Assembly: GCA_013203185.1 (NCBI GenBank)
Contig: JABMOS010000145.1
Coordinates: forward strand, 8,294 to 72,293
Reading direction: 5' to 3'
Length of the DNA stretch: 64,000 nt
Source: Fidelibacterota bacterium
GTDB lineage: Bacteria; Fidelibacterota; UBA8477; JABMPR01
Shown: positions 9,479 through 24,578 of the stretch, piece after piece
Layout: the number at the start of each line of letters is the position of its first letter
Position numbering within the stretch: position 1 is the first letter of the stretch
Position numbers and translations under genes: made by a program
The notes under the pieces: model-generated
Told to the model about the DNA's origin: nothing
Databases searched by the model: none
What the model saw: the letters and a program-made list of their open reading frames with translations, nothing else

Positions 9479-9492
9479 TGGATTTATTTTAT

Positions 9493-9979
9493 ACAACGAA
9501 ATTTACGAATGATACGAACTAGAAATACATGAAGCTAACCTGACTGACATGATATCCATTTTACACAAAACGTTATCAGACAATATCATCAAATTGTCCA
9601 TCGACGTTCAAAAGGAACTGGGGCTTGGATTTTTGGAACGTGTTTATGAAAATGCTCTGATTATTGCCCTTCAAGAAGAGGGTCTCATGGTCGATCAACA
9701 GAAACAGCTTGATGTTTATTTTCGAGGTCAAAACGTTGGTGTTTATATAGCAGATTTAATAGTTGAAGATAAAATCATTCTTGAAATTAAGGCAGTTGAT
9801 AATATTGCCAAACAACACTATGCTCAATTAATTAATTACCTTAAAGCATCTGGCAAAGAAGTTGGATATGTCATTAATTTTGGACGTCTTCCACTCCAAT
9901 TCAAACGTCTTGCAGCCAAAAATCAGTCAATTAAGGATTAAACATCAATGCCTTTCGTTAATTTCGTCAGATTCGTTGT
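9493..9979 (+). mobile_element. Cassette A: intact GxxExxY gene bounded by inverted-repeat arms built from 9-nt-periodic ACGAA/TTCGT words
   Basis: Left arm 9493-9518 is ACAACGAA-ATTTACGAA-TGATACGAA. Right arm 9954-9979 is TTCGTTAAT-TTCGTCAGA-TTCGTTGT, followed by an A-run. The arms are reverse complements at the word level. Confidence 0.5.
9549..9941 (+). CDS. GxxExxY family protein (PD-(D/E)XK-like fold), function unknown
   Basis: 130 aa with the signature G-F-L-E-R-V-Y-ENAL, then ...ADLIVEDKIILEIK... (D...E-x-K nuclease-like core) and QLINYLK...INFG. Confidence 0.85.
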   Translation: MISILHKTLSDNIIKLSIDVQKELGLGFLERVYENALIIALQEEGLMVDQQKQLDVYFRGQNVGVYIADLIVEDKIILEIKAVDNIAKQHYAQLINYLKASGKEVGYVINFGRLPLQFKRLAAKNQSIKD

Positions 9980-10033
9980 AAAAAAGTGTATTGTTTCGCT
10001 AAACGCAACATTGGATTATGATTAAACGATTAT

Positions 10034-12298
10034 ATGTCGAAATCTACTCAAGTAATTGGTACCAGACTTAAACGCATTGATGCTCGTGGTAAAACCACTG
10101 GTGAAACCAAATTTTTGACTGATATCAAAGTAGATAACATGCTCCATGCAGCACCGGTTTTCTCTCATGTTGCTTCTGGACATTTACTGGGAATTGATAC
10201 TAGTGTGGTTGAGAATGACCCTAACTTTGTTGCCTTTTTCTCAGCCAAGGACATTCCAGGTGAAAATCAGGTCGGCGTTATTTTCGAAGACCAACCCTTA
10301 ATAGTCCATGATGTCGTTAGATATGTTGGCGACAGTGTGGGTATACTCGTTGCCAAGACAGCAGAATCTGCCCAGCGACTATCCAAGTTGGTTATGGTAA
10401 ATATTGAACCCTCCCCTCCCATTTTCACAATCAACGATAGCCGAGACTGTGTTGATAATTTTATACATGAAACCAATCTTGCCTGTGAGCACCAGGTAAA
10501 ACGGGGAGACCTTGATAACGCTTTTAAAGGGGCGGATCATATTATCGAAGCACGTTTTGAAACGCCCCTTCAGGAGCATTATTATCTTGAGCCACAAGCT
10601 TGCATCGCCCAGGTCACATCTGAAGGTGGCATTGACATCCTGGGTTCCATCCAGTGCCCGTTCTATGTTCAAAAAGCAGTCTCCAAGGCTCTGGCCATCC
10701 CCTTTTCCAAGATACGCGTGGAACAAGCTCCCACTGGAGGCGCATTCGGAGGCAAGGAGGATATTCCCTCAGAAACCTGCACTCGAGCAGCTCTGGCAGC
10801 TCTGATTCTCAAGCGACCCATAAAAATGGTCTATGAACGAACTACTGATGTTCAGCTTACCAGCAAGCGCCACCCATTTCAAATGCACTACAAAGTTGGC
10901 GTCTCTAATTCAGGGAAACTTCTGGCTGCTGAAATACTCCTCGAAGAAAATGCTGGAGCTTACGCCACCCTATCATCTGTGGTTTCTTATCGTTCAGCCA
11001 TGCAAGCCATGGGTCCTTATGTCATTGATAACATTTCTGTCGAGTCTAAATCCTATTACACCAATCTGCCTCCTACAGGCGCATTCCGTGGTTTCGGCTC
11101 TCCACAGGCAGCCTTTGGACATGAGCGTATGATGGATGTCATTGCTGCAAAACTGGAGATGGATCCCCTTGAGTTACGTTTACAAAATATCTTGAAAGTT
11201 GATTCATCAACCCTGACAGGCCATCATCTCAAAAGCAGCGTTGGGGCTGAAGAAACCCTTCTGACAGCGGCCAGTGCTTGTGACTGGGAGCACCGTGAAT
11301 CAAACCGAGATGGGCGTTGGAAGACAGGCTGGGGCGTTTCGTTGATTCATTATGGCAATTGCCTCGGGGCAGCCGGCTGGTTTATGGATGGGAGTGGTGC
11401 AAAAATAAAATTACATCGGGATGGGTCCATTTCTGTGGCATTTGGTCTCATCGAAATGGGACAAGGAGCCCTCACCATCGTCCAGCAAATGACAGCTGAA
11501 GCCCTGGGTGTTGAACCTTCACGGATTACCGTTTTACCCACAGATACAGAGCAGGTACCAGATAGTGGCCCTGCAGTTGCCAGTCGAAATGTTGTGATGA
11601 CCGGAAACGCAATTCGTGATGCCGCTAACAAATTACTCCCCATCCTTAGAGAAGCGGCAGCAGAGCTCATGCAATGTGATTTGAAAGAAATTGTGATTGA
11701 GAATGGCGTGGTAAGCAATGTGAGGAACAATGAGACACTTGGTTTTTCAGAGCTTACGAATTATCTCTATTTGTCCAACAGGCCAATGGATGTGTTGGGC
11801 TGGTGGCATGTACCTGAACTGAACTACGATCCTGCATTGGGAATAGGTGAAGCCTATTTCACATATTCCTATGCAACCCATATTGCTCGAGTAAAGGTTG
11901 ATACCCTGACAGGAGTGGTGAAAGTAGATAAGATATGGGCTTCCCATGATGTGGGAAGAGCCATCAATCCAGCTGGCCTGGAGGCTCAAATCGAAGGTGG
12001 AACTGTCCAGGGAATTGGATGGGCACTCACAGAAGATTTCAGGGTTGAGGATGGCAAAGTTCTCACCGACAACCTTACGACCTATCTCCTACCAACAGCT
12101 ATGGATGTTGGTGAAATCGAATCAATTCTGGTGGAAGACCCTGAATCTGAGGGCCCCTGGGGCGCTAAAGGTATTGGTGAGCCCGCCATTATACCAACCG
12201 CAGCAGCCATTGCCAACGCAGTGAGTAACGCCCTGGGAACATCAATTACTCATATTCCAATAAAACCGGAGTACATTTTAGAAATGGCAGGTGATTGA
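10034..12298 (+). CDS. Xanthine dehydrogenase family, molybdopterin-binding large subunit (set 1)
   Basis: 754 aa. GGAFGGKE, FRGFGSPQ and GIGEPA motifs characteristic of molybdenum hydroxylase large subunits. Confidence 0.9.
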   Translation: MSKSTQVIGTRLKRIDARGKTTGETKFLTDIKVDNMLHAAPVFSHVASGHLLGIDTSVVENDPNFVAFFSAKDIPGENQVGVIFEDQPLIVHDVVRYVGDSVGILVAKTAESAQRLSKLVMVNIEPSPPIFTINDSRDCVDNFIHETNLACEHQVKRGDLDNAFKGADHIIEARFETPLQEHYYLEPQACIAQVTSEGGIDILGSIQCPFYVQKAVSKALAIPFSKIRVEQAPTGGAFGGKEDIPSETCTRAALAALILKRPIKMVYERTTDVQLTSKRHPFQMHYKVGVSNSGKLLAAEILLEENAGAYATLSSVVSYRSAMQAMGPYVIDNISVESKSYYTNLPPTGAFRGFGSPQAAFGHERMMDVIAAKLEMDPLELRLQNILKVDSSTLTGHHLKSSVGAEETLLTAASACDWEHRESNRDGRWKTGWGVSLIHYGNCLGAAGWFMDGSGAKIKLHRDGSISVAFGLIEMGQGALTIVQQMTAEALGVEPSRITVLPTDTEQVPDSGPAVASRNVVMTGNAIRDAANKLLPILREAAAELMQCDLKEIVIENGVVSNVRNNETLGFSELTNYLYLSNRPMDVLGWWHVPELNYDPALGIGEAYFTYSYATHIARVKVDTLTGVVKVDKIWASHDVGRAINPAGLEAQIEGGTVQGIGWALTEDFRVEDGKVLTDNLTTYLLPTAMDVGEIESILVEDPESEGPWGAKGIGEPAIIPTAAAIANAVSNALGTSITHIPIKPEYILEMAGD

Positions 12299-12299
12299 G

Positions 12300-13610
12300 A
12301 TGGGGAAACTTTTATTGCATAATTTGCGCATAATCGATCCATTTGGCGAACGAGAGTTCTTGGAGCATGCTTCCATTCTCATTGAAGACGAGGTCATCAA
12401 ATTTGTGGGGCGCGGTTTCTCTCATGTCGGCTTTGAGGGACAACTTTTGGATATGGAGGGCAAAACAGTACTACCGGGAATTATAAACGCCCATACCCAT
12501 CTATACTCAACCCTGGCTATGGGAATGCCACCGCCTCAGAAGGCACCTAAAAACTTTGTTGAACACCTCGAGGAAGTTTGGTGGAAACTTGACCGAGGAC
12601 TGGACAAAGAGTCAACAAAGGCCTCCTTTGAGGCAGGACTGATGGACTGTATCCAGAATGGTACAACCACCATTATTGATCATCACGCGAGCCCTAATCT
12701 GATTGAAGGATCATTGGATCTGTTAGCAGATTTGGCTGAGTCCTTCGGGCTAAACATCAGTCTTTGTTTTGAAAGCTCGGACAGAAATGGCGAGTCTAGT
12801 TTCAAAGATGAGTTGATGGAAAATGTTCGCATCATGGCGAAATATGCTACAAACCCCTATGTCTCGCCCCGTCTCGGGCTACATGCTTCATTCACACTGT
12901 CAGATGAGTCTTTGGCACAGGTTAGCAAGCAATTGCATAATTTCCCTGACTGTGGCATTCACATACATGTCGCCGAAGATCTGGCTGATGAAAAGGACGC
13001 CCAGGCCCGGGGATATCGTTCAGTAATTCAGCGTCTGGATGATTTTGATCTTCTATCCAATCAATCCCTGATTATTCACGGTATATTTATGACTCGTGAA
13101 GATCGTCATATCTTATTGAAACATGGGTGCAAACTGGTTCATAATCCATCGTCAAACGCCAATAACCAAGTTGGTGTGTTGGAGACGGAAATCATTGAGT
13201 CTATGAATCCCGGATTGGGTACTGACGGCATGCAAAACAATCTACTGAAAGAGGCTAAGGAGGGGACACTCATCCGCTCAGCCACTGAGAGTCCAGCAGT
13301 AGATTATCTAGAACTTCTTTTTCAAAATAATCCCGATATCGCTGTAAAAATATTCGGGAAACTTGTGGGTCATATTGAAGAAGAAGCACAGGCTGACCTG
13401 GTCTTTTATGATTATGAACCCCGGACAGATTTAAATGCTGACAATTTCGGGAGTCATCTGCTCTTTGGATTTGGACAGCCCAGTGATGTTATGACCCGAG
13501 GTGAGTTCCGCATGCGAAATAAACACCTCGTCGGAATTGATGAATCTCGGATTCGAGAGAATGCCCGCAAACAGAGCAAGCGTCTGTGGTCAGCAATGAA
13601 GGCATTATAA
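12300..13610 (+). CDS. ssnA: SsnA-like amidohydrolase
   Basis: About 436 aa from ATG 12300, preceded by AGGTGA; GTG 12291 is the alternative start. PGIINAHTHLYS metal motif. The size and the ygeY/ygeW/ygfK neighbours match the E. coli ssnA context. Confidence 0.7.
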   Translation: MGKLLLHNLRIIDPFGEREFLEHASILIEDEVIKFVGRGFSHVGFEGQLLDMEGKTVLPGIINAHTHLYSTLAMGMPPPQKAPKNFVEHLEEVWWKLDRGLDKESTKASFEAGLMDCIQNGTTTIIDHHASPNLIEGSLDLLADLAESFGLNISLCFESSDRNGESSFKDELMENVRIMAKYATNPYVSPRLGLHASFTLSDESLAQVSKQLHNFPDCGIHIHVAEDLADEKDAQARGYRSVIQRLDDFDLLSNQSLIIHGIFMTREDRHILLKHGCKLVHNPSSNANNQVGVLETEIIESMNPGLGTDGMQNNLLKEAKEGTLIRSATESPAVDYLELLFQNNPDIAVKIFGKLVGHIEEEAQADLVFYDYEPRTDLNADNFGSHLLFGFGQPSDVMTRGEFRMRNKHLVGIDESRIRENARKQSKRLWSAMKAL

Positions 13611-13647
13611 AAGCACCTAGAGAAGGTATTAACAAGAAAGAATCCAT

Positions 13648-14859
13648 ATGAATATAGATTTCCAACAGATCCTCAACCAGGCCGAAAAATACCGTCCTGA
13701 GATTTCCCGGTTTTTGCGAGACATGATTGCCATCCCCAGTGAAAGCACACAGGAAGAGCTTGCAATTTTGCGCATCAAGGAGGAGATGGAAAAGGTTGGT
13801 TTCGATAAAATTGAGATTGATGAAATGGGCAATATTTATGGCACCATTGGTCATGGGTCACATGTCATCGCCATGGATGCCCATATAGACACCGTCGGTG
13901 TTGGCAATATTGAGAACTGGAATGTGGATCCGTACGAAGGGTTTGAAGATGATCAAATCATCATGGGACGTGGGGCTTCAGACCAGGAAGGTGGGATGGC
14001 CAGCATGGTCTATGCAGGGAAAATCATCAAAGATCTTGGCCTGGAAGGCGATTATACATTGGTAATAACCGGAACGGTTCAGGAAGAAGATTGTGATGGC
14101 CTGTGTTGGCAGTACATCATGGACAATAAGAAGCTGCAACCAGAATTTGTTGTGAGTACTGAGCCAACCTCGTGCAGAATTTATCGTGGTCAACGCGGGC
14201 GGATGGAAATCAAGGTTACCACTTCGGGGATCAGCGCCCATGGGTCAGCACCAGAGCGAGGAGACAATGCCATCTACAAAATGGCTCCAATCCTCCAGGA
14301 GCTGCAGGAACTGAACACGAGATTGGCAGACCATGATTTCCTGGGGAAAGGCACACTCACCGTATCTGAAGTATTCTTCACCTCTCCCTCTCGGTGTGCA
14401 GTGGCTGATGGCTGCTCTATTTCGGTTGATCGACGCCTCACTGTTGGTGAAACTGCAGAATCAGCCATGGATGAAATTAAAAACCTCCCCTCAGTAATAG
14501 CTGGAAAGGCCACTGTGGAGATGTACGACTACGAGCGACCAAGTTATACAGGTTTTAGCTATCGCACTGAGGCCTATTTCCCAACCTGGTTGATAGAAGA
14601 AGATCATGTAGCAACCACATCGTTGGTTCATGCCTACAAAGGACTATTCAAGGAAGAGCCCATAGTTGATAAGTGGACCTTTTCCACCAACGGTGTTGCA
14701 ATTATGGGTAAATATGGGGTGCCTTGTATTGGATTTGGTCCTGGAGCAGAAGAGGAGGCACACGCCCCCAATGAAAAAACCTGGAAAGATCATCTGGTAA
14801 AAGCTGCGGCAATGTATGCTGCCATACCTCTCACCTACCTGGAAACGATTGAAAAATGA
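13648..14859 (+). CDS. ygeY: YgeY-like M20 family peptidase/deacylase
   Basis: 403 aa. MDAHIDTV and [10 protein letters not shown] motifs of the M20/ArgE/DapE family. It lies immediately upstream of, and overlaps, the ygeW-like gene, as in E. coli. Confidence 0.8.
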
Positions 14860-16013
14860 AAAAGCTAATAGCTAAACTTAAAACGCTGGATCTAAGCAAC
14901 TACGGCAATGATTTTCTGTTAACCTGGAACAAAACCTCAGATGAATTGGAAGCAACCCTGCTCATTGCAGAAATTCTGAGAGAGAGACACCGACTTGGAA
15001 AGCCAAACCTGGTATTTGATTCAGGACTTGCTGTTTCAATCTTCAGGGACAATTCAACCAGAACACGTTTCAGCTTTGCCTCTGCCGCCAATGCTCTGGG
15101 ACTGGCAGTCTCAGATATGGATGAGGAAAAATCCCAGGTATCCCATGGAGAAACGGTCCGAGAAACCGCCAATATGATCTCATTTATGACCCGGGTGATT
15201 GGTATCCGGCATGATATGTATCTCGGTGAAGGGCACTCCTACATGAAGGAAGTCTCCTCAGCTGTTCAGTCTGGGTTTGAAGAGGGTGTTTTACACAACA
15301 GACCAGGTTTAATAAATCTCCAGTGTGATATTGACCATCCTACTCAAAGTATGTCTGACCTGGCCATGTTGAAAAACCATTTTGGATCTCTGGAAAATCT
15401 TAAGGGAAAAAAGATCGCCATGTCCTGGGCCTATTCGCCCAGCTATGGCAAGCCGCTTTCTGTTCCCCAGGGTATAATTGGATTGCTCACCCGCTATGGA
15501 ATGGATGTTACTTTAGCTCATCCAGAAGGTTATAACCTCATCCCAGAAGTGGTAAAATTAGCAGATAAACAGGCAGAGTTGTCTGGAGGGTCATTCAACA
15601 CGACCAATAGTATGGATCAGGCTTTCACCGATGCTGATATTGTGTACCCAAAATCCTGGGCGCCATTTCACGTCATGGAAGAGAGAACAGCACTTTTAAA
15701 ACAGGCCGACCAAACGGGGCTAAAAGATTTAGAAAAAAGCTGCCTGGCCACCAATGCAAAATTCACAGACTGGGAGTGCACTGAAGAGAAAATGAAACTC
15801 ACCAGAGATAGTAAGGCATTATATATGCACTGTCTACCAGCTGACATCACCGGGGTAAGCTGCAAGCAGGGAGAAGTGAGTGCCTCTGTTTTTGATCGTT
15901 GCCGCAAAGACACCTACATGGAAGCCAGCTATAAACCCTTTATCATAGCAGCCATGATGTTTTTGACAGGACTAAAAGATCCAATGGCAGCCCTGGACAA
16001 GCTAAAAGATTAA
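14856..16013 (+). CDS. ygeW: YgeW-like (knotted) carbamoyltransferase
   Basis: 385 aa. STRTR carbamoyl-phosphate motif ([10 protein letters not shown]) and HCLPA motif. A 4-nt overlap with ygeY suggests coupling. Confidence 0.85.
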
Positions 16014-16028
16014 TGGCTTTTAAATTCC

Positions 16029-16148
16029 ACAACGAAAGAAACGGAAACAACGAATGCTTTTTAAACTCATACCGGGGATTAAATAGATTTAGTCGCGGGC
16101 GTTGATAAATCTCAAACTTGATTTCGTCAATTTCGTCAACTTCGTTGT
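16029..16148. repeat. Element B: ORF-less (solo) copy of the cassette-A inverted-repeat arms
   Basis: Left arm 16029-16054 is ACAACGAA-AGAAACGGA-AACAACGAA. Right arm 16122-16148 is TTCGTCAAT-TTCGTCAAC-TTCGTTGT plus an A-run, the same termini as cassette A. Only about 67 nt lie between the arms. Confidence 0.55.
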
Positions 16149-16166
16149 AAAAAAAGGATACCTAGA

Positions 16167-17630
16167 GTGAACACTGAACAAATTCTGAAGAACACGATTC
16201 AACGCTGCAAAGAAAAGAATATTATTCTACCCACCTACAAACAGATGGCTGATCCAGATTTGATCCCTGAAGGGATTAAGGCAGAGCTGGCTGATATTGG
16301 TCTTTGGGATCTCAATCCCCGTAACTTGTTCCGAATCAGCTGGCAAAATGAGCCTGTCTCCAAAGGTGGTGGATTTGGGGATGTCAATTATCTGGAGCTA
16401 CCACCAGAATTGACGGGGGTAAGGGCCAGGATCATTGTGCTCATTGGAAAATTCTTCCCCACTGGAGCCCATAAAGTTGGTGCCACCTTTGGTCCTCTCG
16501 TTGAAAAATTGATATCAGGTCAATTTGACCCAACGCGTCAAAAAGCATTGTGGCCTTCTACAGGAAACTATTGTCGGGGAGGTGCTTATGATGGGTATTT
16601 ACTGGGATGTCCCTCAATTGCTGTCCTGCCTGAAGAAATGTCCAGAGAGCGTTATGAGTGGCTTGAAAAAGTTGGCGCCGAAATCATCCGTACAGAGGGT
16701 GGAGAAGCCAATGTAAAAGAAATCTATGATAAGGTGAAACAGCTTGAATCAGAGCGCGGAGATGAGATTGTTACCCTAAATCAGTTCGGCGAAATTGGAA
16801 ACCCTTTATGGCACTACGCTGTTACTGGAAGAGCCATGGAAAAGGTTTTTAACAATATCAGTTCTGGTGACCATCGCTTTAGCGGGATGTTTCTTACCCA
16901 GGGATCTGCTGGAACTCTGGGATCAGCAGATTACCTACGAACTAAATTTCCAAAAATAAAAGTGGGTGCTGGAGAAGCGCTTCAAGTGCCTACATTGCTT
17001 CAAAATGGCTATGGAGCTCATCGTATTGAAGGTATTGGCGACAAACATGTCCCCTGGATACACAACATGAAAAACATGGATATGGTTATCGGTGTGGATG
17101 ACAATATTCCTATGAACCTGGTTCGTCTCTTCAACGAGACTGAGGGGCACGCATTACTAAAAGCCCAGGGAATCAATCCTGACCTGATAGGGAGACTGGA
17201 TTATCTGGGCATTTCAAGTATTGCCAATATTGCCGGTGCCATCAAAATGGCTAAATATTACGAGTACAATGAAAATGATGTGGTCTTCACTGTGGCCACT
17301 GATTCAATGGAAATGTATCAGTCCCGCCTCATAGAGCTACAACAAGAGCTTGGCGATTATACTGAAATTCGCGCCCATGTTGATTTCGAACGTTACCTGC
17401 TGGGCTTGGATGATGAAGGGGTGATGGAACTGAGTTATCGTGATAAAAAGCGCATGCACAATCTGAAATATTTTACCTGGGTGGAACAGCAGGGCAAAAC
17501 AGTGGACGAGCTGGACGCTCAATGGTATGATGATGATTATTGGTCCTCAAAATTCGCCCTGGCAGATGAATGGGATCAAAAAATTGAAGCGTTTAATGCA
17601 GAGACAGGGTTATTAAAGAAGTACGCATAA
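16167..17630 (+). CDS. PLP-dependent enzyme of the tryptophan-synthase-beta-like fold (fold type II), unusually long (487 aa), specific function unknown
   Basis: FPTGAHKVGA (candidate PLP lysine), STGNYCRGGA and QGSAGTLG blocks resemble the CysK/TrpB superfamily. The N- and C-terminal extensions do not match CysK or ThrC. Confidence 0.6.
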   Translation: MNTEQILKNTIQRCKEKNIILPTYKQMADPDLIPEGIKAELADIGLWDLNPRNLFRISWQNEPVSKGGGFGDVNYLELPPELTGVRARIIVLIGKFFPTGAHKVGATFGPLVEKLISGQFDPTRQKALWPSTGNYCRGGAYDGYLLGCPSIAVLPEEMSRERYEWLEKVGAEIIRTEGGEANVKEIYDKVKQLESERGDEIVTLNQFGEIGNPLWHYAVTGRAMEKVFNNISSGDHRFSGMFLTQGSAGTLGSADYLRTKFPKIKVGAGEALQVPTLLQNGYGAHRIEGIGDKHVPWIHNMKNMDMVIGVDDNIPMNLVRLFNETEGHALLKAQGINPDLIGRLDYLGISSIANIAGAIKMAKYYEYNENDVVFTVATDSMEMYQSRLIELQQELGDYTEIRAHVDFERYLLGLDDEGVMELSYRDKKRMHNLKYFTWVEQQGKTVDELDAQWYDDDYWSSKFALADEWDQKIEAFNAETGLLKKYA

Positions 17631-17698
17631 TAACGGGGGTTGATAGTGTCTTGCTGAGGCTCTCGTAGCAAAGGACACAGGGCAATCTATTTACCCCT

Positions 17699-17760
17699 CG
17701 TGGACACTTCGACCAGCCTAGGCCTATAAGCCTTCGGCTTGGCAGGCGGGCTCAGTGTGA
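17699..17760. repeat. REP-like intergenic repeat (CTTCGAC...GGCTTGGCAGGCGGGCTCAGTGTGAC)
   Basis: Shares the words CTTCGAC(C/A)AGC, GCTCAG and TTGGCAGGC(A/G)GGG with the intergenic sites at 30362-30410, 55632-55660 and 63933-63969. Confidence 0.35.
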
Positions 17761-17815
17761 CAACTAGGGGGGACATACCAGAGTACCTGGTAGATATTAA
17801 TGGTAGGAGATTCTA

Positions 17816-19057
17816 TTGATTTCTGAAGCGATTATTGGTTTGAAATGCCATCAATGTGGTTGGGATGGACCCGCTGAGCCATTTTCATATATTTGCCCTA
17901 CATGTGGTAAAAATTTAGACTTCATCTATGATTATGATTGCATTGCTGCATCTTGTGGACCCTTATCATTGAATAAGGATCATGATGATTCCATGTGGCG
18001 ATATCTCCCCTTACTCCCAGTAAAAGCAGCTCCAGAAAACAAATCTCTCCGTGTCGGAGGAACGCCTTTGGTGGATTTTCCACACATTGCCAAGGATCTC
18101 CAAATTGGTCGTCTACAAATTAAAGATGATACACGCAACCCTTCTGGATCCCTCAAGGATCGGGCCAGTGAGCTGGCAATTCAACACGCCAAAGAACAAG
18201 GCAAAAAAACGATTGTCGCCGCCTCTACAGGCAATGCAGGTTCCTCCCTGGCTGCACTTTCTGCATACCATGGCATGGATAGCATTATTCTGGCTCCAGC
18301 CACTGCTCCTATTGCCAAATTGACTCAAATCCTGCAGCATGGCGCTCAATTGGTTCCAGTAGATGCAAATTACGATGGCGCATTCGATCTGGCATTTGAG
18401 TGGGCTCAAAAGAACGAGAGTTATTGTCGCAATACTGGTGTAAATCCCATATTGGCTGAAGGCAAGAAGACTGTAGCCCTGGAGATTGCTGAAAAAAATG
18501 ACTGGAAAGCTCCAGATCACGTATTTGTTCCTGTAGGCGATGGCTGCATCATATCAGGTGTATATAAAGGTTTCTTTGATCTGCTCTCCCTCAAATGGAT
18601 TGATTCCATGCCAGCCATCCATGCTGTGCAGGCAGAAGGTTCAGCAGCGATTGTGGACAGCCTTGTGCGAGAGGGTGACATTTTGTCTGTTTCGGCCAAT
18701 ACCATAGCTGATAGCATTAGTGTGGATCAACCTCGCGATGGGGACAAAGCAAGAAGGGCAATTATTAAAAGCGGTGGCAAAGGCTTTAAAGTGAGTGATG
18801 ATGATATTTTGGAAGCCCAGAAATTGCTCTCCGAAACGACTGGAATCTTTGCGGAACCTGCTGCAGCGGCAGCTTATGCAGGTTTTCTGCAAGCATCTCA
18901 ATCTGGCATTTTTGAAGACGAAGATCATGTAGTTGTGCTCATCACTGGATCAGGACTAAAAGACACAGCAAACGCTCAGAAATTGCTCAAGCCCGTTGAA
19001 GCCGTTAAAGCGACGCTTGTTGATGTAGAAAAATATCTGGAAAAGCTTCAGGGCTAA
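17816..19057 (+). CDS. Threonine-synthase-like PLP enzyme with N-terminal zinc ribbon
   Basis: TTG start 6 nt after AGGAGA. CHQC...CPTC zinc ribbon. NPSGSLKDRAS (PLP lysine) and STGNAG motifs. Confidence 0.75.
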   Translation: MISEAIIGLKCHQCGWDGPAEPFSYICPTCGKNLDFIYDYDCIAASCGPLSLNKDHDDSMWRYLPLLPVKAAPENKSLRVGGTPLVDFPHIAKDLQIGRLQIKDDTRNPSGSLKDRASELAIQHAKEQGKKTIVAASTGNAGSSLAALSAYHGMDSIILAPATAPIAKLTQILQHGAQLVPVDANYDGAFDLAFEWAQKNESYCRNTGVNPILAEGKKTVALEIAEKNDWKAPDHVFVPVGDGCIISGVYKGFFDLLSLKWIDSMPAIHAVQAEGSAAIVDSLVREGDILSVSANTIADSISVDQPRDGDKARRAIIKSGGKGFKVSDDDILEAQKLLSETTGIFAEPAAAAAYAGFLQASQSGIFEDEDHVVVLITGSGLKDTANAQKLLKPVEAVKATLVDVEKYLEKLQG

Positions 19058-19059
19058 GC

Positions 19060-19548
19060 ATGTTACATCATCCCCAACCCCATACCTTTCAGCTGGAAGT
19101 CACCATCAATGGTGAGCTCGTTCAACGAGAGATTCCAACCCACTTACGGCTATTGGATTTTCTCAGAGAGGATCTAGGTCTCACAGGGAGCAAAGAAGTT
19201 TGTGGTGAGGGTGAGTGCGGTGCGTGTACAATTATCTTAAACGGACAAACTGTAAATTCATGCCTCATTCTGGCTGTGGAGGTCCACGGAGCTTTCATCG
19301 TGACTATTGAGGGCCTGGCTGATACGCAAGAGCTCACAGAGATGCAAAAGTCCTTTGAAGATCATCATGCAGTTCAGTGTGGTTATTGTATCCCTGGTAT
19401 GGTTCTCACTGGAGAAAAACTTCTGGACCGACACCCCCATCCCACCAGAGATGAAATCAAGTACGAATTATCAGGAAATATCTGTCGCTGCACAGGCTAT
19501 CATAAAATTATAGATGCTATACAAAGGGCCGCAGATGATCGCGGATAG
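19060..19548 (+). CDS. Xanthine dehydrogenase family [2Fe-2S] small subunit (set 1)
   Basis: CGEGECGACT (plant-type cluster) and CGYCIPG...CRCTGY (second cluster). Confidence 0.9.
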   Translation: MLHHPQPHTFQLEVTINGELVQREIPTHLRLLDFLREDLGLTGSKEVCGEGECGACTIILNGQTVNSCLILAVEVHGAFIVTIEGLADTQELTEMQKSFEDHHAVQCGYCIPGMVLTGEKLLDRHPHPTRDEIKYELSGNICRCTGYHKIIDAIQRAADDRG

Positions 19549-19771
19549 GCACGGATAAATGGAATTAAAGCATAGCGAAATAACAGATAAAATTCTCAAA
19601 GCCGTGAAAGCGATGGTTCCAGAACATGAAGCCCCGTTACTAAACTATTTAAAAGCTACAGATATTGAGGTTGGGTTATTAATTAATTTTGATCAAAAGC
19701 CAAACTTTAAGCGATTTGTGTTCGAAAATTCTAGAAAAAATATCCGCTTAGACCCGCGTAAATCGGCGGTG
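19540..19771 (+). mobile_element. Cassette C: decayed GxxExxY cassette with CGGATA/TATCCG-type arms
   Basis: The left arm CGCGGATAGGCACGGATA (19540-19557) overlaps the stop codon of the 2Fe-2S gene. The right arm TATCCGCTTAGACCCGCGTAAATCGGCGGTG (19741-19771) ends 8 nt before the next start codon. Confidence 0.45.
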
Positions 19772-19777
19772 AATTAA
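19559..19777 (+). pseudogene. GxxExxY gene remnant (internal deletion of the core)
   Basis: The 72-aa product keeps an N-terminal stub (MELKHSEITDKIL) and the family C-terminus (LLNYLKATDIEVGLLINFDQKPNFKRFV). It lacks the GxxExxY and D..ExK core. Its last about 12 codons are read-through of the repeat arm. Confidence 0.6.
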
Positions 19778-19779
19778 TT

Positions 19780-20613
19780 ATGCAATTTTATCAACCTACT
19801 TCTATGCGTGAGTTTATTGAATTGAGCTCAAGCCTGTCAGATGAGTTCGCGACCTTCCTTGCTGGTGGAACTGATTTATTGCCCCGTTATGAACGTGGAC
19901 AAGCCATGCCTGATCATCTCATTGATCTCAAGAAACTTTCTGATCTTTACCACATCAATATTAAAGATGACGTCATTCAGATCGGAGCCTTAACCAGTAT
20001 CCAGGTAATTCAAGAGAAACCACTATTCCAGTCTGAATTTATGGCCCTGCACATGGCCGCACACGATTTTGCAGGCGCTCAGATCCGTCATCGTGGGACC
20101 ATAGGTGGAAATATCGTCAATGCGTCGCCTGCAGGGGATTTATTGCCAGCGCTCTATGCTTTTGGTGCCGTACTCACGTTAATCGGACCAGATGGTGAGA
20201 GACAGTTACCCATTCAAGATTTTGTTCTCGGTCCTGGCAAAACGGCCCTTAAGCAGAATGAAATTCTTGTGACCATAAACTTAGAACGAACCCCGTATAA
20301 ATCTACCTTCCATAAAGTGGGTCTGCGTCAATCCATGGCTATTTCAGTGGCGAACCTTGCATTCGTTTATTCTGAAAAAAATGGTGTTTTTGATTATCTC
20401 AAAATCGCGGCTGGAGCTGTGGCTCCTACCATAGTGACACTGGATAAATTGACCAGTACAATTCTTGACAATACCAGTACGCCAGAAGATTGGCCCCTAC
20501 TCATAGAGGCAGACATTTCGCCCATAGATGATATTCGAGCGACGGCAAAATATCGAAAACAGGTTGTGAATAATTTGGTACAAGCATTCTTGAGAAGAGA
20601 GTTGACTGTCTAA
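19780..20613 (+). CDS. Xanthine dehydrogenase family FAD-binding subunit (YgfM/CoxM-like, set 1)
   Basis: 277 aa. LAGGTDLLP and HRGTIGGNIVNASPAGD FAD-binding motifs. Confidence 0.85.
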   Translation: MQFYQPTSMREFIELSSSLSDEFATFLAGGTDLLPRYERGQAMPDHLIDLKKLSDLYHINIKDDVIQIGALTSIQVIQEKPLFQSEFMALHMAAHDFAGAQIRHRGTIGGNIVNASPAGDLLPALYAFGAVLTLIGPDGERQLPIQDFVLGPGKTALKQNEILVTINLERTPYKSTFHKVGLRQSMAISVANLAFVYSEKNGVFDYLKIAAGAVAPTIVTLDKLTSTILDNTSTPEDWPLLIEADISPIDDIRATAKYRKQVVNNLVQAFLRRELTV

Positions 20614-20614
20614 G

Positions 20615-23600
20615 ATGAACGATAGACTCTATCCCCTCCCCCTCCAGCATCTTATTACCTGGATGCTATCTGAGCTTAAAAGCGATCAGCTATTTGGGAT
20701 CCAGAAGGACTTATTCTTCACGCCTGACAAAACAGACCCTTTTCGTATGCAACGCTATGGCCAACTGTTAGAAACCCCCATAGGGGTAGCCGCTGGTCCA
20801 CATACTCAGCTTTCCCAGAATATCATCGCGGCCTGGTTATGTGGGGCTCGTTACATGGAGCTAAAAACCGTCCAGACACTGGACGAGCTTGAGGTAAGCA
20901 AACCATGTATTGATATGCAGGATGAGGGCTACAATTGTGAGTGGTCCCAGGAGCTCAAGCTAAAGCAATCCCTGGATGAATATCTTAATGCCTGGATAGC
21001 CATTCACATTTTGAAGGACCATTTTGGCTGGCAATCTGATCAAGGTGCTGGTGTGATTTTTAACATGAGTGTGGGTTATGATCTTGATGGGATAATGAAA
21101 CCCAATGTCCAACATTTTATGGACCGTATGGAAGACAGCCAGGAATTATTGGATGAGAAGTTGAATCTCATCGAATCCATATATCCCAACATTAAGAACC
21201 TGAATATTCCTTCCCGGATGACGGATAATATTACCCTATCCACCATGCACGGATGTCCTCCAGATGAAATTGAACGCATTGCGACCTATCTCATAAAAGA
21301 GCGCAAGTACCACACGGCTGTAAAACTGAATCCCACGTTGCTAGGCCCCCATCAACTACGTCAAATATTGAATCACGACCTGGGTTATGAAGCATCCATT
21401 GTTCCTGATGAGGCATTTGCCCATGATTTAAAATATCCTGATGCCTTAAACCTCATTGGCAATCTCCAAACTCAGGCGGAAGAATCTGGTGTGGAATTCG
21501 GTTTAAAGTTGACCAATACGTTGGAAGTTCAAAACCACCGACCCGTTTTTCCTGAAAATGAAACCATGATGTACCTCAGTGGCCGGGCACTGCACCCCAT
21601 CAGCATCAATCTCGCAGCAAAACTTCAACAAGACTTCCATGGAAAATTAGATATCTCTTTTTCAGCAGGGGCAGATGCCTTCAATGTGGCTGACATTCTG
21701 GCATGCAATCTTCGTCCTGTTACCACCTGTACAGATGTGCTGAAACCTGGCGGATACACGAGACTGGGACAGTATCTGGAGAACCTGAAACAGGCCATGC
21801 AACAAGCTGAATCGTCGAGTCTTGAAAAGTTTATCGTGGGAAAGGATACATCTCAGGATATAGATAATGCTGGGTTAGACAGATTGATCCAATACGCAGC
21901 AAAGACCATTTCTAATCCCCATTATCATAAGCGAAATCACCATTTTGATTCCATTAAAACCAAACGTCGTCTGGGAGCATTTGATTGCATATCAGCCCCT
22001 TGTGTTGATGCCTGTGCAGCTGATCAAAATATCCCTGAATATCTTTATCACACGTCTCAGGGTAATTTCGACAAAGCTTTTGAAGCCATTCAGGATACCA
22101 ATCCCCTGCCTGGCGTCACAGGACATGTCTGTGATCATTTATGCCAGTTAAAATGCACCAGGAATAATTATGACTCGCCCCTTTTAATCCGTGAGATCAA
22201 GCGTTTTGTGACTGAACAGGAAATTGCAAAGGTTGGTACTCCTAAAATCACAGGGAAAGGATACAAGGTTGCTGTGATTGGAGCTGGTCCCGCTGGATTA
22301 TCCTGTGCCTATTTTTTGGCTAAACAGGGTATTTCTGTAAATGTATATGAGAGCAAATCATTTGTTGGAGGTATGGTCTCTGGCGCCATCCCGGAATTCA
22401 GGCTAAGTGACGAAACTATTAATCTTGATATCGATATTCTGAAAAAAATGGGAGTCAATTTTCATTTTGATAGCCCCGTTGGTACGGAGCTCTATACACA
22501 GATTCAAGAATCAAGCGATGATATCTTTATTGGTGTTGGCGCTCAACGAGCTTTGAAGCTAGGGGTTGAAGGTGAAACCCTTTCTGGTGTGTTAAACCCA
22601 TTAGAATTTCTTGCTGAAGTCAGACTGGGTGCTCGTCCAGATCTCGGTGATAATATTGCCATCATTGGAGGTGGCAACACAGCCATGGATGCTGCCCGCA
22701 CGTCGCTTCGATTGGCAGGTGAGTCAGCAACCGTCAATGTCATCTATCGACGGACTATGTCAGAAATGCCAGCCGATATTGATGAAATCGAAGCTGCGCT
22801 GGCTGAAGGCATCACCTTCCATGAGCTCATAGCGCCAATACGATTTGAAGGTGACGACAAGGTGCAGCAGATTCATTGTCAAAAAATGGAACTGGGTGAG
22901 CCTGATGCCAGCGGTCGCCGTCGTCCAGTACCTCTGGATGGTGAGTTCCTGAAGTTTCCTGTGGATACTGTGATTCCATCAATTGGCCAGGCCATTAGCG
23001 TAGATTTTATTGGCGAGGATGATCTTCAGGTGAACTATGAAACCTGTAAAACAACCATTCCCCATGTGTATGCAGGCGGCGATGCCGTGCGGGGTGCCTC
23101 CAGCGTCATCAATGCCATTGGAGATGGACAAAACGCAGCCCGTCACATTCTCCAGAACATAGAAATACCGACGATTCCCAATAGAAACGCGCCACGACTC
23201 ATATCCATAAATGATCTAAAAGTTAAGGCCGCTAATCGTGAGTATGGAATCCATCCTCCTCTGGCTGAGCCAGACAACTCCCAGAAGTTTCCAGAAGTCC
23301 ATCGAACCCTGACTCAAGAAGAGGCTGTAGCAGAAGCCTCGAGATGTTTGTTATGTGATGATTATTGCAGTGTCTGTGTGGGGGTTTGTCCAAATCTCGC
23401 CAATCTCACTTATATGGTGAAGCCTGTGAAATATGATATCCACGAAATAGAACTCGTGAATGGCGAGCAAGTCAATACAGCCACCGGACAACTTGATATC
23501 AATCAAGAGCCACAAGTATTGAATATAGGTGATTTCTGCAACGAATGCGGTAATTGCACCACCTTTTGCCCCACCGCAGGGGATCCCTATCTCGATAAAC

Positions 23601-23902
23601 CACGATTACACCTGTCTGAGCAAAGCTACCTTGAATCAAAGGTAGGTTACCTGATTTCAAGCAATTCTATCCGAATTAAAAACGATGACTATGAGGCCTC
23701 CATTATTCATCAAGATGGCGACTATAAATATACTTCACCCAATACTCAGGTCAGTTTTGATGGCAAATCAAAAAAGTTTAGGGCTGTTGAATTAGGTTCG
23801 GAATCAGGAACATTTAGTACACGCGAACCTCTTGAAATGATCCTACTTTATGAAAACCTGAAAGATCATCCAATGCTAATTGGACACAAAACTAAAGAAT
23901 GA
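20615..23902 (+). CDS. ygfK: YgfK-like large Fe-S flavoprotein (TIM-barrel N-domain + 4Fe-4S + GltD-like FAD/NAD(P) domain + ferredoxin-like C-terminus)
   Basis: 1095 aa. The N-terminus (PIGVAAGPHTQLSQNI...MELKTVQ...KPCIDMQDEGYNCEWSQE) closely resembles my recollection of E. coli YgfK. VAVIGAGPAGLSCA and IIGGGNTAMDAAR are the dinucleotide folds. Cys clusters CxxCxxCxxxCP lie near the C-terminus. Confidence 0.85.
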   Translation: MNDRLYPLPLQHLITWMLSELKSDQLFGIQKDLFFTPDKTDPFRMQRYGQLLETPIGVAAGPHTQLSQNIIAAWLCGARYMELKTVQTLDELEVSKPCIDMQDEGYNCEWSQELKLKQSLDEYLNAWIAIHILKDHFGWQSDQGAGVIFNMSVGYDLDGIMKPNVQHFMDRMEDSQELLDEKLNLIESIYPNIKNLNIPSRMTDNITLSTMHGCPPDEIERIATYLIKERKYHTAVKLNPTLLGPHQLRQILNHDLGYEASIVPDEAFAHDLKYPDALNLIGNLQTQAEESGVEFGLKLTNTLEVQNHRPVFPENETMMYLSGRALHPISINLAAKLQQDFHGKLDISFSAGADAFNVADILACNLRPVTTCTDVLKPGGYTRLGQYLENLKQAMQQAESSSLEKFIVGKDTSQDIDNAGLDRLIQYAAKTISNPHYHKRNHHFDSIKTKRRLGAFDCISAPCVDACAADQNIPEYLYHTSQGNFDKAFEAIQDTNPLPGVTGHVCDHLCQLKCTRNNYDSPLLIREIKRFVTEQEIAKVGTPKITGKGYKVAVIGAGPAGLSCAYFLAKQGISVNVYESKSFVGGMVSGAIPEFRLSDETINLDIDILKKMGVNFHFDSPVGTELYTQIQESSDDIFIGVGAQRALKLGVEGETLSGVLNPLEFLAEVRLGARPDLGDNIAIIGGGNTAMDAARTSLRLAGESATVNVIYRRTMSEMPADIDEIEAALAEGITFHELIAPIRFEGDDKVQQIHCQKMELGEPDASGRRRPVPLDGEFLKFPVDTVIPSIGQAISVDFIGEDDLQVNYETCKTTIPHVYAGGDAVRGASSVINAIGDGQNAARHILQNIEIPTIPNRNAPRLISINDLKVKAANREYGIHPPLAEPDNSQKFPEVHRTLTQEEAVAEASRCLLCDDYCSVCVGVCPNLANLTYMVKPVKYDIHEIELVNGEQVNTATGQLDINQEPQVLNIGDFCNECGNCTTFCPTAGDPYLDKPRLHLSEQSYLESKVGYLISSNSIRIKNDDYEASIIHQDGDYKYTSPNTQVSFDGKSKKFRAVELGSESGTFSTREPLEMILLYENLKDHPMLIGHKTKE

Positions 23903-24103
23903 ACACCTGAAACCATGAAAGTTGGAATTTGAAATTAGGCCTATTGAATAAGACTTGGAAAGAGAGTGAAATATTTTGATACTATCACTACGGTTTAAAA
24001 TCATCATAACTCAATTTCCTGGAAATAAGTATGAAAAAGCTATCTTCGATTAGAGTATATGTGTCGTCAGAGAAAATATCAGACTATATCTGAAGGCTGA
24101 TTA

Positions 24104-24561
24104 GACACGAATCCCACAAAGCACACTAATAGTCACGAAAATGTTTATTGTATAAAAGAATCCGATGGGCGAATGGCTGAGATAATATACAAGGATCTAT
24201 CATATCAAATTGTGGGCTTAGCAATGGAAGTGCATAAACAATTGGGATATGGCTTTCTAGAAAAGGTGAACGAAAACGCGCTTCGCATCCTATCACTGTG
24301 CGATTTAAAGGTGAAATTGTTGGACAGTATTATGCTGATATGCTGGTTGAAGAAAAAATTATTTTAGAACTCAAAGTGGCTGAAAGAATTAGTTCTGCTC
24401 ATAAAGCTCAAGCGCTAAATTACCTGAAAGGAACTGGTCTAAAACTGGCAATAATACTTAACTTTGGTCCAAAGAAACTGGAGAGTCACCATGTGGTCAA
24501 CTGATTTTTTCCTGGTTAAAAACTCAAGAAACACTCGTGTTAATTCGTGTGTTCTTCGTGC
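24104..24561 (+). mobile_element. Cassette D: frameshifted GxxExxY cassette with CACGAA/TTCGTG-type arms
   Basis: Left arm is 24104-24139 (GACACGAA...CACAAA...GTCACGAA). Right arm is 24534-24561 (CTCGTGTTAA-TTCGTGTGTTC-TTCGTGC). The right arm creates the spurious GTG-extended N-terminus of the next gene. Confidence 0.45.
24173..24504 (+). pseudogene. GxxExxY family pseudogene (frameshift/internal deletion)
   Basis: ORFs 24173..24367 (…LGYGFLEKVNENAL, with motif Y replaced by N) and 24298..24504 (RFKGEIVGQYYADMLVEEKIILELK...LNYLKGTGLKLAIILNFG) are the two halves of one family member in different frames, with about 15-20 residues missing. Confidence 0.7.
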
Positions 24562-24578
24562 AATTGGTGTCATATAAA

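Follow-up and report, generated by a model that had tools for sequence, protein, structure and literature searches.

Word-built inverted-repeat cassettes with GxxExxY nuclease genes in a Fidelibacterota purine-catabolism operon, probable counterparts of 23S rRNA intervening sequences

Intervening sequences (IVSs) of bacterial 23S ribosomal RNA (rRNA), in which inverted repeats enclose an open reading frame (ORF), have been known since the 1990s. Here we compare with them four inserts in a purine-catabolism operon carried on a 64,000-nt stretch of DNA from a Fidelibacterota bacterium (assembly GCA_013203185.1, contig JABMOS010000145.1, positions 8,294 to 72,293), the whole of which is called the window. 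The inserts are bounded by inverted arms built of short words, and three of them hold a gene, or what is left of one, of the GxxExxY family. IVSs whose ORF encodes the four-helix-bundle protein S23p occur in Leptospira, Coxiella burnetii, Brucella and Haemophilus (PMC4990558 and works cited there), and excision by RNase III has been shown for the IVSs of Coxiella, Leptospira and Salmonella only (PMC4990558). The Coxiella burnetii IVS is low in GC and is cut by RNase III in the middle of its stem; its S23p ORF lies in the loop behind a Shine-Dalgarno (SD) sequence of poor quality, decays by deletion, and has two or three tandem GACAGAT repeats, variable in number between strains, just before its ATG (PMC4990558). 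Both IVP genes, as the S23p-type genes are also called, and GxxExxY genes have been reported between cas genes or beside a CRISPR-associated reverse transcriptase and were read as partners of these systems (PMC3936711, PMC8934634). In the full-text literature searched, GxxExxY is seldom named, and neither its flanks nor an arm-bounded design is described.

We consider it probable that the four inserts are copies, decayed to different degrees, of a selfish stem-loop cassette of the 23S rRNA IVS type that resides in the inter-cistronic junctions of messenger RNA (mRNA) operons. What is new, relative to the IVSs with inverted repeats and an ORF already known, is an IVS-type cassette with nuclease cargo in mRNA operon junctions of many phyla. 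The purine-catabolism operon spans 7.8-26 kb of the window with all genes co-directional, and comprises an adenine deaminase (ade), the xanthine dehydrogenase (xdh) large subunit, two amidohydrolase/M20 genes, ygeW, two pyridoxal phosphate (PLP) enzymes, the xdh 2Fe-2S and flavin adenine dinucleotide (FAD) subunits, a ygfK-like gene and an amidohydrolase, referred to below as the deaminase. Four of its spacers (ade/xdh-large, ygeW/PLP, 2Fe-2S/FAD and ygfK/deaminase) have inverted arms of 2-4 short words at 9-10-nt spacing, and a GxxExxY reading frame lies in three of the four, on the operon strand each time. The elements, called A to D in this order, are laid out as follows.

9487..9518: cassette A left arm, TTTTAT-ACAACGAA-ATTT-ACGAA-TGAT-ACGAA; begins 9 nt past the ade stop codon
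9549..9941, + strand: cassette A cargo, intact 130-aa GxxExxY / PDDEXK_3 nuclease-fold gene (profile match, catalytic residues)
9954..9985: cassette A right arm, TTCGT-TAAT-TTCGT-CAGA-TTCGTTGT-AAAAAA
16029..16054: element B left arm, ACAACGAA-AGAA-ACGGA-AACA-ACGAA
16055..16122: element B loop, about 67 nt, no ORF (arms-only form)
16123..16155: element B right arm, TTCGT-CAAT-TTCGT-CAAC-TTCGTTGT plus an A-run; next come GGA and the PLP-enzyme GTG at 16167
19540..19558: cassette C left arm, CGCGGATAG-GCACGGATAA, where CGCGGATAG (19540-19548) includes the TAG stop of the 2Fe-2S gene
19559..19777, + strand: cassette C cargo, 72-aa GxxExxY stub that has lost the catalytic core by deletion but keeps the N-terminal ~15 residues and the C-terminal third
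19741..19769: cassette C right arm, TATCCGC-TTAG-ACCCGCG-TAA-ATCGGCGG, within the stub ORF at its 3' end
24104..24140: cassette D left arm, GACACGAAT-CC-CACAAAG-CACACTAAT-A-GTCACGAAA; conserved in the related operon L203
24173..24504, + strand: cassette D cargo, GxxExxY pseudogene in two ORFs (24173-24367 and 24298-24504) with a 40-nt internal deletion
24532..24571: cassette D right arm, CACTCGTG-TTAA-TTCGTG-TGTTC-TTCGTG-CAA-TTGGTGTC; ends 7 nt before the probable deaminase ATG 24579

The pattern TTCGT-N4-TTCGT-N4-TTCGTTGT, with at most two mismatches, matches the 64 kb only at 9493-9518 (-), 9954-9979 (+), 16029-16054 (-) and 16123-16148 (+), that is, at both arms of A and both arms of B in inverted orientation, and none of 100 shuffled sequences gave any match. 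A spaced-word scan of the window likewise found ACGAA, CGGATA and CACGAA arrays confined to the four spacers. When the arms were paired as RNA and compared with shuffles, duplex energies were -21.8 kcal/mol for A (z -5.6), -19.9 for B (z -4.3), -18.9 for C (z -2.5; 9 of 500 shuffles equally good) and -28.9 for D (z -4.2); the arms of A and B also pair in the minimum-free-energy (MFE) folds. These three lines of evidence confirm the claim of the initial annotation that four spacers carry word-built inverted arms. Its word spacing of 9-11 nt holds as regards the iteration, the period in A and B being corrected to 9 nt.

The arms of A are 32 nt long and 75% complementary according to the repeat search, the right arms of A and B are near-identical, and no obvious SD sequence precedes the A gene. 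ACGAA-type elements often end on the right with TTCGTTGT(T)-AAAAA-GGA, and a host start codon follows 8-12 nt further on (window 16141-16169; loci L224 and L227; L205 3800-3838), as if the right end brought a ribosome-binding site for the downstream host gene. The words of C are of the CGCGGAT/CACGGAT type and those of D are CACGAA.

The product of the A gene matches TIGR04256 (GxxExxY) with 132.7 bits (cutoff 35) and PF13366 (PDDEXK_3) with 131.1 bits (cutoff 22). Cassette C scores 40.9 bits against TIGR04256, over profile positions 74-115 only, and the two fragments of D score 32 bits (24173-24367, just under the cutoff) and 70.1 bits (24298-24504). Alignment of D with its intact ortholog in L203 revealed 40 nt lost between short direct repeats, an internal deletion that accounts for the frameshift. 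The profile matches and this alignment bear out the earlier description of A as intact, B as arms only, C as an internal-deletion stub and D as frameshifted, all on the operon strand. Protein A has the residues of a PD-(D/E)XK nuclease (motif G27-E30-Y33, D69 and E79-I-K81); among 59 aligned homologs E30, Y33, E79 and K81 do not vary, and D69 hardly varies. Its AF2 model (mean pLDDT 91.5) is a minimal PD-(D/E)XK core and would be compatible with an active nuclease. A sequence search of the PDB found no solved relative, and the fold search (closest were LHK-Exo, lambda exonuclease and Cas4 SSO0001, TM about 0.52) returned generic PD-(D/E)XK cores that are uninformative on substrate. Intact copies of the gene are evidently under purifying selection (dN/dS = 0.155 for A against its ortholog in L207). 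PDDEXK_3 / GxxExxY is the sole Pfam/NCBIfam match of the cargo, and no transposase was recognised.

A tblastn search of 50,697 phage records gave no GxxExxY match, and the 12 GxxExxY loci from IMG/VR are a mixture of armed and armless copies, uninformative on mobility. Armless homologs are found on viral contigs L215 and L217-L220 (one a giant-virus metagenome-assembled genome), and arms are present on L211, L213 and L214; the armless copies may reflect another lifestyle of the protein.

Arms and gene form a unit well beyond the window. An alignment scan with one genome per species yielded 80 GxxExxY loci from at least 16 phyla, including Bacteroidota, Chloroflexota, Acidobacteriota, Planctomycetota, Ignavibacteriota, Desulfobacterota, Fusobacteriota, Verrucomicrobiota, Spirochaetota, Pseudomonadota and several candidate phyla, and the flanks of 76 were tested against 232 other ORFs from the same loci. 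Flank complementarity exceeded the threshold, set at the 95th percentile of shuffles, at 55 of the 76 GxxExxY loci versus 9 of the 232 control ORFs, and word arrays were present on both sides in 46 of 76 versus 8 of 232. Inspected by eye, nearly all loci have about three words upstream (CACGAAT, CACGGAT, CACAGAT, ACAGGAT or CGCGGAT) and their reverse complements downstream, often with the start and stop codons inside the innermost words; in 20 of 47 loci no more than 3 nt separate the stop codon from the first 3' word. The main layout is a purine-word arm, the ORF and a pyrimidine-word arm (left arm, ORF, right arm in about 36 of 76 loci), and the outer ends share the motif TAGCCAC / TAGAACAC ... 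GTGTTCTA / GTGGCTA. Spacing between paired arms, taken over all loci, falls into two modes, 0-150 nt for hairpins and 350-600 nt for gene-bearing elements. Upstream and downstream neighbours share the strand of the gene in 72 of 75 and 62 of 65 cases, respectively, and lie a median of about 59 nt away. The arm-gene pattern recurs in annotated records from cultured strains (Treponema saccharophilum and a Fusobacteria isolate). The initial annotation had asked whether arm plus ORF is the conserved unit, and the excess over control ORFs supports this, as do the closest paralogs of A at other junctions, which keep their ACAACGAA/TTCGTTGT arms.

The exact A/B arm pattern was found at 120 or more loci on metagenome contigs, with the consensus AATTCGTNNAATTCGTNNAATTCGTTGT followed by an A-rich tail. 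Among the matches listed, 129 are not simple tandem repeats, and an inverted partner lies upstream in 54 and downstream in 5, versus none among 127 shuffled arms; the loops of these pairs are mostly 4-140 nt, the arms-only form seen in B is commonest, and only L054 has ACGAA arms around a GxxExxY gene. Since most ACGAA-type arms in metagenomes are gene-less, the hairpin rather than the gene may be the primary unit. Other GxxExxY genes in those loci are flanked by inverted word arrays of CGGAAT, AAATCYG or CAGATT. Spacers holding arms-only hairpins are co-directional in 30 cases, convergent in 8 and divergent in 2, a distribution that does not clearly depart from the background (150, 38 and 30). 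Other ORFs were noticed beside or between such arms, namely a 92-aa coiled-coil protein between two hairpins in a Deltaproteobacteria bacterium (L191 4460-4930) and a 229-318-aa ORF, matching nothing in Pfam, that is conserved between WOR-3 and Planctomycetota loci (L130 943-1896, L164 4371-5057). These may be further cargo types.

The link to rRNA IVSs is provided by PF05635 (23S_rRNA_IVP), the protein family of the 23S rRNA IVS, whose genes are bracketed by inverted word arrays at other loci too. The arm duplex at the PF05635 locus L157 has a z of -4.2, and arms at L129, L077 and L194 were recognised by eye. The GGTATA/TATACC arms of the PF05635 cassette in L203 are suggestive only, having been seen by eye, missed by the repeat search and found non-significant as a duplex (z -0.85). 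The analogy drawn in the initial annotation with an rRNA intervening sequence proved closer than proposed, in view of the 23S_rRNA_IVP gene in spacer 1 of the L203 operon and the GACAGAT repeats in the RNase III-cut stem of Coxiella (PMC4990558). The window itself contains no IVP homolog by tblastn and no rRNA according to an Rfam scan, and universal rRNA motifs are absent from all loci examined for an rRNA-borne copy. None of the 4227 Rfam covariance models matched the window at the gathering threshold or the arms of eight arm-rich loci at E <= 0.1.

The nearest homologs of the window's genes carry the annotation Candidatus Marinimicrobia. Four orthologous purine operons from related Marinimicrobia (L203-L206), found through PLP-enzyme homologs 83-91% identical to that of the window, differ from it and from one another in occupancy.

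Junction 1, ade/xdh-large: window, intact GxxExxY gene; L203, another cassette with a PF05635 gene; L204, empty, with an ATGA stop/start overlap; L205, ACGAA arms with a C-terminal remnant of an A-type protein; L206, ACGAA arms with an N-terminal remnant
Junction 2, ygeW/PLP: window, L203 and L205, arms only; L204, empty (41 nt); L206, right arm only
Junction 3, 2Fe-2S/FAD: window, stub C; L203, L204, L205 and L206, empty
Junction 4, ygfK/deaminase: window, frameshifted D; L203 and L205, intact 123-aa gene; L204 and L206, empty

All four sites are empty in L204, and the junction-1 deletion stubs of L205 and L206 are independent. The L203 segment equivalent to window spacer 9479-10033 (L203 3093-3560; PLP enzyme 91% identical) holds a 155-aa PF05635 gene with GGTATA/TATACC-type flanks where the window has a GxxExxY gene, so different cassettes have colonised one junction. 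At the same ade/xdh site, another abundant population has an ortholog of A, 80-82% identical, with its arms conserved. The next closest relatives, 65-66% identical, lie at short-chain dehydrogenase (SDR)/htpG and aconitase/isocitrate-type dehydrogenase (Iso_dh) junctions and keep ACAACGAA...TTCGTTGT arms; D-type proteins are 45% identical to A and have CACGAA arms. As judged from these alignments, arm plus gene is shown to be inherited and relocated as a unit, on the host coding strand, and to be gained and lost between close relatives. The series also documents a decay path, from gene to stub by internal deletion and then to bare hairpin. The comparison of orthologous clusters called for in the initial annotation therefore bore out presence/absence variation and empty sites (L203-L206). 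Its core proposal of a small selfish cassette is supported by the conserved arm-plus-ORF unit and by the occupancy differences between relatives.

The 1-kb bins containing cassettes A (9001-10000) and D (24001-25000) have GC contents of 0.396 and 0.390, the minimum of the operon region (elsewhere about 0.44-0.48). These dips are consistent with a foreign origin, as reported for the Coxiella IVS.

Host gene boundaries bear on how the inserts fit their junctions. The genes adjoining them, assigned with NCBIfam/Pfam, are listed here.

7829-9478: ade
10034-12298: xdh large subunit
14856-16013: ygeW
16167-17630: PLP enzyme, start GTG 16167
19060-19548: xdh 2Fe-2S subunit, TAG stop 19546-19548
19780-20613: xdh FAD subunit, start ATG 19780
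20615-23902: ygfK-like oxidoreductase
from about 24579: amidohydrolase ('deaminase')

The arms had been described as abutting or overlapping host stop and start codons without disrupting a host ORF. This is so for C, in which the stop codon lies within the left arm and the right arm ends about 10 nt before ATG 19780, but not for the left arm of D, which lies about 200 nt past the ygfK stop. The longest-ORF start of the deaminase, GTG 24537, would make that gene traverse the right arm of D. Orthologs start with MS(T/S)LL, which corresponds to ATG 24579; this is most likely the true start, and it places the arm outside host coding sequence. The stretch of about 200 nt between the ygfK stop and D (window 23903-24103) is conserved with L203 and includes a 20-codon mini-ORF at 24031-24093 (MKKLSSIRVYVSSEKISDYI in the window, MKELSSLEVSVLSEKLSDHI in L203). 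In L203 an outer set of words brackets the whole region, GAAACTG in tandem on its left side and CAAATTTC-type words on its right. It may be a leader, or else an older or nested element.

The spacer between the two PLP genes (17631-17815) carries a 185-nt GC-rich insert of another kind, with an MFE of -61 kcal/mol, about 76% identity to L203 11504-11667 and no Rfam match; the equivalent spacers of L204 and L206 are only 27-29 nt long. The M20/ygeW spacers of L203 and L204 contain similar-looking GC-rich pieces (…CACTTCGAC…CTTCGGC.TGGCAGGC…). The purine operon thus seems to harbour a second family of mobile intergenic inserts, unrelated to the cassettes.

In its anatomy the cassette is a palindrome whose 5' arm consists of 2-5 purine-rich words, (A/C)ACGAA(T), CACGGAT, CACAGAT, ACAGGAT or CGCGGAT, one every 9-10 nt, and whose 3' arm consists of their reverse complements, with outer ends like TAG-CCAC...GTGG-CTA or ACAAC...GTTGT plus an A-run. 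One small promoter-less gene fills the loop almost exactly, for a GxxExxY PD-(D/E)XK nuclease or, in sister cassettes, for a four-helix-bundle S23p/IVP protein. In the mechanism that we favour, by analogy with IVSs and from the geometry, the cassette would be transcribed within the operon mRNA, where the arms may pair into a long stem that extrudes the insert and keeps the flanking cistrons adjacent. RNase III would probably cleave the stem, as it does in rRNA IVSs, translation of the loop gene would be poor or by coupling only, and the right end would often supply an A-run and GGA 8-12 nt before the next host start. For the break that would start copying into empty junctions, the nuclease is the obvious candidate enzyme.

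Several observations weigh against this account. Folds of the complete spacers do not surpass shuffles in stability (z +0.43 and -1.07), significance being found in the arm-arm duplex test only, so that the RNA folding proposed in the initial annotation stands for the arm pairs and not for the spacers as wholes. Pairing in A is limited to the words, giving a stem of 8+5+5 bp with 4x4 internal loops, which would make it a weak RNase III substrate, and to invoke RNase III for elements outside rRNA would itself be an extrapolation. Mismatches between arms, counted on the sense strand, comprise 41 of the G:U type and 46 of the A:C type, without wobble bias. By eye, uncounted, they fall mainly in the inter-word spacers, and the words therefore seem to be conserved as sequence and not only as pairing partners. 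Iteration of words within an arm is not required by pairing alone. Recognition of the words by a protein would thus be a serious rival to a role in pairing. The iteration could also have arisen by slippage during replication, as in the Coxiella repeats that vary between strains. Word type goes with protein similarity (55% within type versus 49% between types, a difference that none of 2000 permutations reached) and with cargo type. The former association is confounded by co-inheritance and is for that reason not used here as evidence for specific recognition, the correlation fitting recognition by the cargo protein as well as co-inheritance. As to movement, flanking direct repeats showed no excess over permuted pairs, with element boundaries that are imprecise and no filled/empty allele pair below 1% divergence, and comparison of ends found no defined insertion site. 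Survivorship following random insertion could account equally well for the apparent targeting of operon spacers.

The points concerning words bear on a DNA transposon or miniature inverted-repeat transposable element (MITE), an interpretation that we regard as possible though rather unlikely. The arms would then be terminal inverted repeats with subterminal iterated sites, the encoded GxxExxY nuclease or, in sister elements, the four-helix-bundle protein would bind its own words on DNA and cut the ends or a cruciform, and gene-less hairpins would be mobilised in trans, as in the pairing of repetitive extragenic palindromes (REPs) with REP-associated tyrosine transposases (RAYTs). Words kept as sequence while spacers drift, the lack of G:U bias and the recurrence of 2-5 words per arm at about one helical turn would all be expected, as would the conserved terminal motif (TAGCCAC/TAGAACAC...GTGGCTA). 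Yet the same design acts at the RNA level in rRNA IVSs. The nuclease fold with its intact catalytic residues would suit an enzyme that cuts DNA, but at 125 aa the protein is a minimal PD-(D/E)XK core without a recognisable DNA-binding or transposase domain, and the occurrence of two unrelated cargo families in the same architecture makes neither an obvious transposase, even though word type tracks protein clade and cargo type. Arms-only copies are numerous and ordered left to right (the 54 upstream and 5 downstream partners among the matches listed), and locus L182 has ORF-bearing and ORF-less elements with the same arms, in keeping with mobilisation in trans. Against this, no target-site duplication was detected above permuted pairs, and the extreme co-orientation with host genes is unexpected for symmetric ends unless selection is strong.

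Domesticated operon punctuation, in which the hairpins would be host modules for RNA processing, stability or translation coupling and the small ORFs passengers or remnants, seems to us improbable. Most arms indeed lack any gene, the T-run and A-run flanks are in an anti-terminator arrangement that would not stop transcription, the right end is often TTCGTTGT-AAAAA-GGA placed 8-12 nt before the next start codon, and B-type hairpins are kept at the same site in three lineages. A useful host module is nevertheless hard to reconcile with L204, a close relative that has the same operon with tightly coupled genes and zero inserts, or with occupancy that varies between relatives, copies that are decaying and low GC at the inserts. 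The presence of the same word families in at least 16 phyla suggests horizontal spread and not local invention.

We think it very improbable that the elements are integron-like cassettes, in which the palindromes would be attC-like single-strand sites for a tyrosine recombinase encoded elsewhere and ORF plus hairpin would move as a circle. The small genes are promoter-less and co-oriented, structure is better conserved than sequence across word families, and hairpin-ORF-hairpin-ORF-hairpin arrays do occur at L191, L146 and L131; elsewhere the cassettes are single and scattered through housekeeping operons. In the main layout (left arm/ORF/right arm, counted above) the ORF lies inside one palindrome and not beside a hairpin, the ends ACAACGAA...TTCGTTGTAAAA or TAGCCACG...CGTGGCTA are unlike the attC core RYYYAAC/GTTRRRY, and the called genes of the window include no integrase or attI platform. 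Chance repeats or transcription-factor sites of the purine operon, to which the roughly helical spacing of iterated, operator-like words lends some resemblance, deserve practically no credence, being ruled out by the absence of matches in 100 shuffles against four in the window, by occurrence in other operons and phyla, and by absence from orthologous operons.

Returning to the IVS-type cassette, a broader proposal that we advance only tentatively, short of thinking it probable, is that rRNA IVSs are the long-known tip of a pan-bacterial superfamily of mobile stem-loops living chiefly at stop/start junctions of ordinary operons, whose cargo, a minimal PD-(D/E)XK nuclease or an Avd-like four-helix bundle, would recognise its own words and drive copying into empty junctions, while RNase III excision and a portable ribosome-binding site would hide the insertion from the host. 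If true, this would give bacteria an 'mRNA intervening sequence' system that moves by a new mechanism. In Bacteroidota, Chloroflexota, Acidobacteriota, Planctomycetota, cyanobacteria and many candidate phyla, the genes for GxxExxY and four-helix-bundle IVS proteins rank with the commonest small genes that are still unexplained. Viewing them as the cargo of a bounded element would explain their presence inside unrelated operons, where they have been taken for functional partners, and under the cassette model the IVP and GxxExxY genes of the CRISPR-related loci (PMC3936711, PMC8934634) would be hitch-hikers. The cassette design offers a sequence signature for annotating thousands of intergenic hairpins and links the 30-year-old question of rRNA IVS origin to a large non-rRNA reservoir. 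Tractable systems exist in cultured Flavobacterium, Bacteroides, Treponema and Pelotalea for studying tolerance of an insertion at a coupled junction and mobilisation by a 125-aa nuclease.

Among known systems, REPs and their composite form BIME, together with RAYT, share with the cassettes the many short extragenic palindromes in operon spacers, a gene between inverted repeats that is the proposed mobiliser, and gene-less copies that vastly outnumber the gene. However, RAYT is an HUH Y1 transposase of the IS200/IS605 family whereas the cassettes encode a minimal PD-(D/E)XK protein or a four-helix bundle, and the cassette arms are iterated-word arrays rather than single REP hairpins, with cargo strictly co-oriented with host genes. 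MITEs and the ends of Mu, Tn7 and Ac/Ds resemble the cassettes in having inverted ends with several word copies and in the coexistence of autonomous and internally deleted forms. The cassettes differ in their size of 70-600 bp, their transcribed junctions and single orientation, and in that neither a recognisable transposase nor a target-site duplication was found. With integron cassettes and attC sites they have in common promoter-less co-oriented small ORFs, imperfect palindromes in which structure prevails over sequence, and occasional arrays, but the cassette ORF is usually inside the palindrome, the cassettes are single, and attC core sites, integrase and attI platform are absent. The free-standing homing endonuclease genes seg and mob of phage T4 are wedged between conserved phage genes without bounding palindromes and are of the GIY-YIG or HNH type; the likeness lies in a small nuclease gene, in presence and absence between close relatives, and in different insertions recurring at one junction.

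The closest comparison remains that with rRNA IVSs. IVSs are situated in rRNA helix 9, 25 or 45, whereas all four window elements lie between protein-coding genes, in mRNA operon junctions, and their cargo is a PD-(D/E)XK nuclease (PF13366) and not S23p/PF05635. Cassette words are spaced 9-10 nt apart while IVS words are tandem heptamers, and RNase III excision from mRNA would split the operon transcript whereas fragmented ribosomal RNA holds together anyway. In other respects the two agree. Complementary termini enclose the insert and form a stem, with one small ORF on the transcribed strand filling the loop, and the GACAGAT of Coxiella, present two to three times, is of one word family with the CACAGAT/AACAGAT arms of the cassettes. 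Both have a poor SD, ORF decay by deletion and ORF-less versions, and both combine low GC and horizontal transfer with a sporadic distribution, seen here in the differing occupancy of five orthologous operons. Finally, a PF05635 gene, the cargo of the rRNA elements themselves, is found in spacer 1 of the purine operon of the relative L203.

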